From a virus (Duplodnaviria; Heunggongvirae; Uroviricota; Caudoviricetes): a DNA stretch of 7,549 nt. Below the pieces are notes generated by a model. It saw only the letters and a list, made by a program, of their open reading frames with translations. It made no database searches and was not told where the DNA came from. The position numbers and the translations under genes were made by a program. The stretch lies in the IMG/VR virus record IMGVR_UViG_2531839374_000013, positions 1-7,549 of that record; one strand, given 5' to 3'. This document shows positions 3,020 to 4,744 of the stretch, piece by piece. Positions within the stretch are counted from its first letter, which is position 1; every line of letters begins with the position of its first letter.

Positions 3020-3420
3020 TTAATATTTTCCCAAAATGCACTTGGTTTTACACCGGAATATTCTCATCGTATCCTGCTTGTTGCGTTTCGTTTTGTGTTT
3101 GTGGATCCGGGAATGCATATTCAACGCCTTCCAGTTCAATCCATAGTGCATTACGACCAGCTTTGATTGTCGGCCAGTCCATACCTTTGATTCTTTCCCA
3201 TGAGCGGGAGGTGAATGTTTTTCCAGCAAATCAGCTTTTGCGCGTTTGGCGTCGTTACTGGTGCCCCCATGGTGCTTGTTGAGCAACTCGATAATTTCAT
3301 CAAGTGCGATTTCTTTTGCACGCTTTTCTTTTAGCCATGTCGGTGTACCGTCGTTGGCAAATAATTCACTGTTATCCCGTGAGGTATCGATGCCGAGGTG
3401 TTCACCTCCCAGGTTAAGAA
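3020..3420 (-). pseudogene. C-terminal fragment (about 133 codons) of an unidentified prophage gene truncated by IS911
   Basis: Open frame runs from the IS911 boundary (3421) to the TAA at 3020-3022. The first 26 codons of ORF 3020..3499 lie inside the IS911 inverted repeat, so that N-terminus is chimeric. Confidence 0.5.
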
Positions 3421-3428
3421 TGAAGTGG

Positions 3429-4268
3429 TCAACAAAAACTGGCCACCGAGTTAGAGTTTTTCCAGTATCGATTTTCCGATTCGTTTGGGGGTAACCCACC
3501 GTTATATTCGTGCGGTCTTAGTGCGCTGTAATATCCAACGATATAGTCCGTTATGGCGTGAGCTGCCTCGCTGAAGCTTACGTAACCCACCACCGGCATC
3601 CATTCGTTCTTCAGACTCCTGAAGAAGCGTTCCATTGGGCTGTTATCCCAGCAGTTTCCGCGCCGGCTTATACTCTGTCTGATCTGGTATCGCCACAATA
3701 ACTGCCGGAACTGCCTGCTCGTATAATGACTGCCCTGATCGCTGTGGAACATCACCCCGCCGGGCTTACCACGGGTTTCCCATGCCATTTCCAGCGCTTT
3801 CATGGTGAGCCTGCTGTCCGGCGAGAACGACATGGCCCAGCCCACTGGTTTTCTTGCGAACAGGTCGAGAACAACGGCGAGGTACGCCCAGCGCTTACCC
3901 GTCCAGATACAGGTCACATCACCGCACCACACCTGATTTGGCTCGGTCACGGCGAACTGCCTTTCAAGGTAGTTAGGGATAGCAACATGTTCATGACCAC
4001 CACGTTTATACCGGTGAGTCGGCTGCTGACAGCTGACCAGCCCCAGCTCTTTCATGAGCCTGCCAGCAAGCCAGCGTCCCATCTGGTAGCCTCTCCGGGT
4101 TGCCATTGTGGCGATGCTTCTTGCTCCGGCCGAACCATGGCTGATGCCATGTAGCTCAAGTACCTGACTGCGTAATACAGCCCGTCTGCCGTCTGGTTTT
4201 TCAGGACGGTTTTTCCAGTATCTGTAGCTGCTGTGATGAACCCCGAACACTTGGCAGAGTGTGACCAC
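3429..4268 (-). CDS. insO: IS911 OrfB (DDE transposase); expressed as OrfAB fusion 3429..4597 via -1 frameshift
   Basis: ORF in the -1 frame relative to orfA; stop lies within the right inverted repeat. Coordinates are for the first ATG; the fusion frame opens near 4340. Confidence 0.85.
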
Positions 4269-4294
4269 AGGATAATGCGCTCTGAGTTTCCCGA

Positions 4295-4597
4295 TTATCG
4301 AGAACAGTTCAGGGAGTCTGACATCAAGAGCGCGGTAGCCTTTTTTAATATTTCATTCTCCATTTCAATGCGTTGTAGCTTTTTCCTCAGCTTACGTATT
4401 TCGATTTGTTCTGGTGTTATCGGAGAGGCTTTTGGTGTTTTGCCCTGACGCTCATCACGCAGTTGTTTGACCCATCTTGTCATTGTGGAAAGGCCAACAT
4501 CCATAGCTTTGGCAGCATCTGCCACCGTGTATTTCTGGTCAACAACCAGTTGAGCGGATTCGCGTTTAAACTCTGCGCTAAAATTTCTTTTTTTCAT
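4295..4597 (-). CDS. insN: IS911 OrfA, 100 aa
   Basis: [46 protein letters not shown]...[15 protein letters not shown]; start at 4597 (the ORF-track extension [12 protein letters not shown] is upstream read-through). Confidence 0.9.
4340..4346 (-). promoter_or_regulatory. IS911 programmed -1 frameshift heptamer A AAA AAG
   Basis: OrfA codons tta aaa aag gct at the orfA/orfB overlap. Confidence 0.65.
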
Positions 4598-4744
4598 TGG
4601 AGCACCTGTGTTGTTCTGAGGTGAGCATATCACCTCTGTTCAGGTGGCCAAATTCAGTGTGCCACTTCAGCCCGAAAGGGCGGGGAGCAGTCACACATCT
4701 GTTTCCGATAGCCCCGTTCTAATGCTACACTCTTTGATATTTTT

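Follow-up and report, generated by a model that had tools for sequence, protein, structure and literature searches.

An IS911 copy without target-site duplication as the probable scar of an internal deletion in a defective lambdoid prophage at the ttcA (Rac) site

The prophage remnant and its IS911 copy

The stretch of DNA analysed here, called the window throughout, comprises positions 1 to 7,549 of the IMG/VR record IMGVR_UViG_2531839374_000013 and reads as the remnant of a strongly decayed lambdoid prophage, with three insertion sequence (IS) elements in 7.5 kb. The subject of this report is the middle one, a copy of IS911 that is flanked by unlike triplets and very probably represents the scar left when an internal deletion of 9,460 bp arose in a defective prophage at the ttcA (Rac) site of a Shigella boydii-type lineage. 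To its left lie an integrase gene, a first copy of IS600, a dead excisionase gene, a DUF1187 gene and the stump of a gene for an AAA_24 family ATPase; to its right queH is the first intact gene, followed by a hok-family toxin gene and part of a nin region, in which ybcO is interrupted at 7197/7198 by a second IS600. Gene names are taken from the RefSeq annotation of homologous Escherichia coli prophages and from Pfam matches of identical or near-identical proteins, and the coordinates are collected in Table 1.

Table 1. Features of the 7,549-bp window, with the basis or context of each call (ORF, open reading frame).
Feature	Position	Strand	Remarks
intR-type integrase gene (int)	1-1236	-	Window begins within gene; ttcA directly beyond in relatives
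IS600 copy, 1264 bp	1247-2510	+	3-bp target duplication GTC at 1244-1246 and 2511-2513; near-identical element annotated IS600
xisR pseudogene	2511-2720	-	Nonsense codon at codon 59; IS600 in last codon
DUF1187 gene, intact	2820-3008	-	ORF and homologue annotation
AAA_24 family ATPase gene, 3' remnant, 373 bp	3048-3420	-	Codons ~242-365 of 365; translation compared with intact L012 gene; Pfam AAA_24 on intact homologues
Left flanking triplet GAA	3418-3420	.	Final bases of breakpoint site 1
IS911, complete, 1249 bp (IS3 family)	3421-4669	-	99.4-99.7% identical to annotated IS911 copies
IS911 terminal inverted repeat, orfB-distal end (TGAAGTGGTCAACAAAAACTGGCCACC...)	3421-3456	.	Adjoins AAA_24 remnant
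IS911 orfB	3429-4268		Open frame
IS911 orfA	4295-4597		100 aa
A6G frameshift motif AAAAAAG	4340-4346		Slippery site
IS911 terminal inverted repeat, orfA-proximal end (reverse complement TGAAGTGGCACACTGAATTTGGCCACC...)	4634-4669	.	Adjoins queH upstream region
Right flanking triplet GCC	4670-4672	.	Initial bases of breakpoint site 2; in 5' arm of hairpin CCGCCCGAAAGGGCGG
queH (epoxyqueuosine reductase, DUF208/PF02677)	4766-5431	+	RefSeq homologue; exact protein with PF02677 in many assemblies
hok/gef-family toxin gene (hokD-like)	5673-5828	+	Homologue annotation
Rem (nin region)	6078-6365	+	
DUF1367 (nin region)	6404-7003	+	
ybcO/DUF1364 (nin region)	7003-7200	+	
Second IS600, 5' part, in ybcO	7198-7549	+	Continues past window end

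The element itself is readily recognised. Its left junction reads CCCAGGTTAAGAA followed directly by TGAAGTGGTCAACAAAAACTGGCCACC, its right junction GGTGGCCAAATTCAGTGTGCCACTTCA followed directly by GCCCGAAAGGG, and over the full length between them it matches copies annotated by RefSeq as 'IS3-like element IS911 family transposase, programmed frameshift'. Both ends begin TGAAGTGG and share their first 8 bases and an internal GGCCACC block, so forming imperfect terminal inverted repeats that start with 5'-TG. In a related locus (L010, from CP045784; L numbers denote the loci fetched for this analysis) a copy 99.7% identical to that of the window is called as a 389-aa product with HTH_Tnp_1 and rve domains, and the window copy looks intact. 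It carries every feature of IS911 that was tested except a target duplication, and such a duplication is the mark of a simple insertion event and not of the element.

No 3-bp or 4-bp direct repeat flanks the window copy, with GAA on one side and GCC on the other; realignment yields no repeat of 2-5 bp, and a one-base shift of either boundary creates no duplication. An earlier note on this DNA had described the element as an IS911 without target duplication between just these triplets, and both the reading of the sequence and the extraction of the junctions bear this out, although the interval it gave, 3418-4672, takes in the two triplets, which are correct, along with the element proper at 3421-4669. 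The same note took the left flank for a truncated prophage gene, which proves to be the AAA_24 ATPase gene, reduced here to its 3' 124 codons, and the right flank for queH/hok/nin-region DNA, in agreement with the presence there of queH, hok, Rem, DUF1367 and ybcO.

The boundaries assigned to the element are not arbitrary, because three other IS911 copies, delimited by the same 1249-bp ends, have perfect 3-bp duplications (AGG in L003, TCC in L004 and AAC at position 649 of L005), and the closely related ISEc52 in L015 likewise has CTA on both sides. Within the window, the first IS600 provides an internal control for simple insertion, having a clean GTC duplication and IS-free relatives that are contiguous across it, and a complete copy of the second IS600 in the relative L009 has a GGA duplication. 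The missing duplication at IS911 is nonetheless weak evidence on its own, because two triplets taken at random will differ in 63 of 64 cases, and the IS911 copies of the fetched loci include five different flank pairs without duplication, so that duplication-less IS911 is common in these genomes. It gains meaning because the two flanks are widely separated in IS-free relatives, as described in the next section. The AGG-flanked copy of L003 (4156-5404), from the unrelated strain E. coli 90-1, borders a similar prophage remnant, with hokD directly downstream, and on the upstream side of that copy are ordinary chromosomal genes for an MFS transporter and a LysR regulator.

The two flanks in IS-free relatives

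Each flank continues without interruption in relatives that lack the element. Site 1, in which CCCAGGTTAAGAA, ending in GAA, runs on into ACTCGATATGAGG, is unbroken in 14 loci, and site 2, in which ATCATCAGGAGACC precedes the GCC that opens GCCCGAAAGGGC, is unbroken in 12, with A replacing the first G of ATCATCAGGAGACC in L011, L013 and L014. Both sites occur within a single prophage, in the same order and orientation and 9,460 bp apart, in L012 (GCA_014155105.1) and again in L028, an annotated prophage of strain FDAARGOS_944. The flanks of the window IS911 are thus found on one ancestral segment with order and orientation kept and the intervening DNA gone, which is the pattern of an IS-bounded deletion. 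By the annotation of L028, the DNA lost from the window comprises the first ~241 codons (the 5' two-thirds) of the AAA_24 ATPase gene, gam, recE and a small hypothetical gene; ydaE, rha, DUF1391, genes for cI-like and cro-like regulators and ydaT; and two replication genes (one of them ydaV-like), DUF977 and a 118-aa ORF.

For the window IS911, then, neither a 3-bp (rarely 4-bp) target duplication nor contiguity of the flanks in IS-free relatives, the two marks of a simple insertion, was found. A simple insertion whose duplication had decayed by point mutation, or an assembly artefact in which contigs were joined through a repeat, would account for the missing duplication and for nothing beyond it. 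Decay of a duplication leaves unexplained a structure whose flanks stand 9,460 bp apart in IS-free relatives, and an artefact is contradicted by the recurrence of the right junction in 11 other loci and of the left junction in L010, independently assembled records among them; spacing and recurrence together refute both, and the chance that either is correct is negligible. The earlier note had placed IS911 at a rearrangement junction, a claim against which a 3- or 4-bp duplication or contiguous flanks in an IS-free relative would have spoken; neither turned up, and the comparison with an intact prophage that it called for produced the spacing seen in L012 and L028. Its further proposal, that the copy probably sits at the scar of an IS911-mediated deletion or of recombination between two copies, is supported by the IS-free relatives and can be narrowed to an internal deletion.

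The right breakpoint falls within the 5' arm of the perfect hairpin CCGCCCGAAAGGGCGG (window 4670-4683; L012 9903-9918). In the mosaic relatives L015 and L027 the sequence diverges directly after this hairpin, which therefore marks a module boundary, with the 118-aa ORF on one side and either queH or a DUF4014/HNH/DUF551 module on the other. Sequences resembling the IS911 inverted repeat, which would suggest a targeted insertion, were not found near either breakpoint above the level of shuffled controls.

Whether the rearrangement was a deletion, an inversion or a translocation can be judged from the surroundings of the prophage. In relatives whose identity to the window is 99.8-100% over positions 1-846 or 1-1875, ttcA lies directly beyond int, and the relatives that share a junction with the window (L009, L029-L033) have ttcA and int to the left of the remnant and sitDCBA to its right. 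An intR-type integrase gene beside ttcA, together with a gene order like that of annotated Rac-site prophages, identifies a lambdoid prophage of the Rac (ttcA) site. Intact prophages at this site also have ttcA and sit at opposite ends, in the same orientation and ~45 kb apart (in FDAARGOS_944, ttcA at 5,000,588 and sit at 5,046,026), direct alignment of the FDAARGOS_944 Rac-site prophage (L015) with L030 is collinear throughout, and Rac-site prophages with queH at this position exist (APEC O1). Because ttcA-intR and sitDCBA are still collinear with intact Rac-site prophages, the event is best regarded as an internal deletion and not as an inversion or translocation.

These observations also bear on a different history, in which IS911 would be the joint of recombination between IS911 copies in two separate prophages, one at the ttcA site and one carrying queH at ybhA/modC, with a large inversion, deletion or translocation as the outcome. 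It draws on FDAARGOS_944, where the left flank has its best match in the ttcA-site prophage and the right flank in a second prophage ~700 kb away at ybhA/modC, on the identity of the AAA ATPase and Gam proteins of these two prophages, and on the position of the queH module beside modC in L011, L013 and L014. The genomes that share the junction nevertheless keep the ttcA-int...sitDCBA arrangement in the normal Rac-site order and orientation; a single exchange between prophages is thereby excluded and a second, compensating one would be needed. Since Rac-site prophages with queH at this position are known from APEC O1, and no IS911 with reciprocal flanks occurs in the fetched loci, such an exchange is quite unlikely.

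Reciprocal flanks had been proposed in the earlier note as a means of tracing the event. Among the fetched loci no IS911 copy has the half-sites GGAGACC(GCC) before the element or (GAA)ACTCGATATG after it; such a search cannot settle the matter, because a deletion leaves no reciprocal copy. One candidate, the IS911 at position 14735 of L009, has ...GCCC before it and GGAA... after it and so resembles GCC/GAA shifted by one base; neither breakpoint fits its longer flanks, and the resemblance is treated as a coincidence. This second IS911 of the relatives (L009 14735-15983; L030 12513-13761) is in the opposite orientation and is bordered by CCC and GGA, with no duplication. It lies just past a DUF1133 gene and a tRNA region, with IS66 and sitDCBA next in order, and probably marks another deletion, of ~25 kb, that removed lysis, head and tail genes.

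Several points weigh against reading the window IS911 as the scar of an internal deletion in a Rac-site prophage. The prophage of L028, which is the one with a visible attachment site among the IS-free relatives that have both flanks and queH, sits at ybhA/modC and not at ttcA, and the Rac-site prophages of FDAARGOS_944 and VL40 have a different module in place of queH. The exact ancestral prophage is a reconstruction based on mosaic relatives with 96-99% identity, and for the true ancestor the figure of 9,460 bp is an estimate. The presumed ancestor, with IS911 at one breakpoint and a duplication or with IS911 at both, was not found in the collections searched: an IS911 end followed after 0-5 nt by ACTCGATATGAGGAAG, and ATCATCAGGAGACC followed after 0-6 nt by TGAAGTGGTC..., had no matches in the GTDB representative genomes or the JGI metagenomes, and the single-insertion junctions were absent from 5,426 complete E. 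coli genomes (queried with chimeric 500-bp sequences) and from the fetched loci. These collections hold few Shigella chromosomes, which makes this a weak negative.

Age of the scar, later erosion and the route of the deletion

The right junction, taken as a 40-mer, recurs in 11 other loci, including CP000036 (which we take to be Shigella boydii Sb227), CP026762, CP026811, CP026814, CP026795 and CP045784, and several of the independently assembled records among them are chromosome-sized (>4.5 Mb). A junction common to 11 loci argues that the deletion is old and fixed in its lineage. The left-junction 40-mer is present in L010 only. Neither junction was found in the complete E. coli genomes, and no record in that search covers at least 80% of window 2511-5600; in the nearest cases there (VL7S7, O121 strain 201805972, strain 90-1 and MSB1_4E) the IS911-family element sits elsewhere.

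The loss of the left junction elsewhere goes with further IS activity at the same locus. Sister genomes (L020, which is CP000036, and L009 and L029-L034) have a 1310-bp IS3-family element, with ends TGAACCGCCCCGGG..., inside IS911. Its right junction, at window position 3700, is constant in L020 and the L009-type loci, its left junction varies (3144 in L020, 1641 in L009), and it has no duplication. In L032, which matches the window at 100% identity over 1-1875 and at 99.97% over 4289-7549, the 1310-bp element stands between window positions 1875 and 4289. These junctions amount to nested one-sided deletions anchored on a single IS, at this very locus. In L010 a 768-bp IS1-like element (GGTGATGCTG...; 7591-8358) replaces 2.8 kb, window 322-3124, with loss of the greater part of int, the first IS600, xis and DUF1187, as well as the 3' end of the AAA_24 stump, and this too looks like an IS-anchored deletion at the locus. 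Judged by these comparisons, the scar is old and lineage-wide, and the window preserves it with the least erosion.

Smaller lesions are scattered through the remnant. The first IS600 adjoins the int start codon on its upstream side, and codon 59 of xisR (window 2544-2546) has changed from TAC to TAA relative to the E. coli XisR protein. Compared with L012, the AAA_24 stump has lost 1 bp from a run of T near 3218, which causes a frameshift, and 11 bp are missing at window 3031, between the stump and DUF1187. Upstream of hok, in the region where the regulatory RNA elements of hok-family systems are expected, the window has a 14-bp tandem duplication (5498-5525; AGGCTATCTGCTTC twice) that is not in L012 and, to judge from alignment lengths, is also missing from the other relatives that lack the junction.

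Two routes to the scar come into consideration, and the choice between them, a matter of inference, slightly favours adjacent deletion from one copy over recombination between two. By adjacent deletion, a single ordinary IS911 insertion at either breakpoint, with its 3-bp duplication, would have been followed by a transposase-mediated deletion that started at one end of the IS and ran outward as far as the other breakpoint; this would remove one copy of the duplication and all of the DNA between, and would leave a single IS with unlike flanks and no reciprocal product. We lean this way because the nested one-sided deletions on the 1310-bp element show such events at the locus, and because the IS150-associated deletions of the Long-Term Evolution Experiment (LTEE) showed no duplications and had been preceded by an insertion (PMC11708052).

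Weighing against that lean are IS911-family elements that other strains carry, in the same orientation, within ~0.3-0.75 kb of each breakpoint. They fit the second route, by which IS911 copies would have inserted separately, in the same orientation, in the AAA_24 gene (with a GAA duplication) and upstream of queH (with a GCC duplication), and homologous, RecA-type recombination between them would have discarded the 9.46 kb and one IS as a circle; this leaves the same scar, and is a variant of the internal deletion, not a competitor to it. The unlike flanks are exactly what it predicts. In strain VL7S7 an IS911 of the same orientation, with a TCC duplication, stands ~740 bp from site 1, FDAARGOS_944 has an ISEc52 (94% identical to IS911), also in the same orientation, ~0.5 kb from site 2, and MSB1_4E has one ~0.3 kb from site 2. 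Mosaic blocks in other IS911 copies show that copies of IS911 recombine, and deletions in Shigella have been attributed to recombination between homologous IS copies (PMC7373316). What tells against this route is that it needs two insertions and a recombination where the other needs one insertion and a deletion, and that no genome with both copies, or with a single copy at the exact sites, is present in the collections searched; the window IS911 also has no chimeric pattern of single-nucleotide differences, a test without power here in view of the few sites at which the copies differ. With IS911-family insertions near both breakpoints and recombinant blocks in other copies, recombination between two copies is quite plausible and nearly as likely as adjacent deletion. 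The recombinant blocks themselves are dense runs of substitutions at IS positions 392-616 in L010 (13813-15061) and at 968-1004 in both copies of L005 (649-1897 and 13866-15114), and suggest gene conversion with a diverged IS911-family element.

A third possibility dispenses with conventional insertion altogether: IS911 might have been captured at a double-strand break while the deletion formed. The outcome would look the same, an IS without duplication placed precisely where the deletion closed, and an 'IS at the centre of a deletion' that lacks a target-site duplication has been proposed by Ngan et al. (2024; PMC11708052). Every traceable IS3-family case in that study had a prior insertion, however, and nothing at this locus specifically supports or requires so unusual a route, which makes it very unlikely. 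If it were correct, the window would represent a natural, fixed example of the duplication-less pathway proposed from laboratory evolution (PMC11708052).

Whatever its route, the deletion bounded by IS911 explains why immunity, replication and recombination genes are lacking from the remnant. A prophage that has lost these modules cannot be induced, while its cargo is kept, namely queH and hok, with the sit iron/manganese transporter genes nearby. The junction could serve as a lineage marker, and the locus, given the nested deletions of the sister strains, might furnish a small natural data set on the rates of IS3-family adjacent deletion and inter-copy recombination.

Comparison with known systems

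The window copy resembles an ordinary IS911 insertion in its length of ~1.25 kb, its TG...CA ends, its imperfect inverted repeats and its orfA/orfB arrangement with an A6G -1 frameshift. It differs in that an ordinary copy has a 3-bp direct repeat, whereas this one stands between GAA and GCC, and in IS-free DNA its flanks lie apart. With the Rac prophage of E. coli K-12 the remnant shares an attachment site next to ttcA, intR/xisR-type genes and, in intact relatives, the recombination genes of the left arm. Unlike Rac, it is reduced to int, a dead xis and DUF1187, together with a gene stump and part of the nin region, and it has three IS elements within 7.5 kb. The Rac prophage of K-12 is itself defective through other deletions.

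The closest experimental parallel is provided by the LTEE, in which all 14 deletions associated with IS150, also an IS3-family element, lacked duplications and arose after an earlier insertion at the same place; they ranged from 14 bp to 49 kb, and missing duplications of this kind are conventionally ascribed to inter-IS recombination or to adjacent deletion (Ngan et al., 2024; PMC11708052). As in those adjacent deletions, an IS3-family element is retained at the deletion edge with no duplication, but the earlier insertion was seen directly in time-series samples there and the event in the window is ancient. On the scale of genomes, five IS, IS911 and IS600 among them, have expanded in every Shigella species, and the accepted cause of gene loss and genome reduction in Shigella is deletion between IS copies or adjacent to one (Hawkey et al., 2020; PMC7373316). 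The sister lineages examined here conform to that picture, adding IS-anchored deletions at the same locus, although the window junction is not described in that study, which did not focus on prophage genes and whose main text never uses the word 'prophage' (PMC7373316). The event is thus of an already known kind, part of the routine IS-driven genome decay of Shigella-type bacteria, of which the window offers a clean and well-bounded example.

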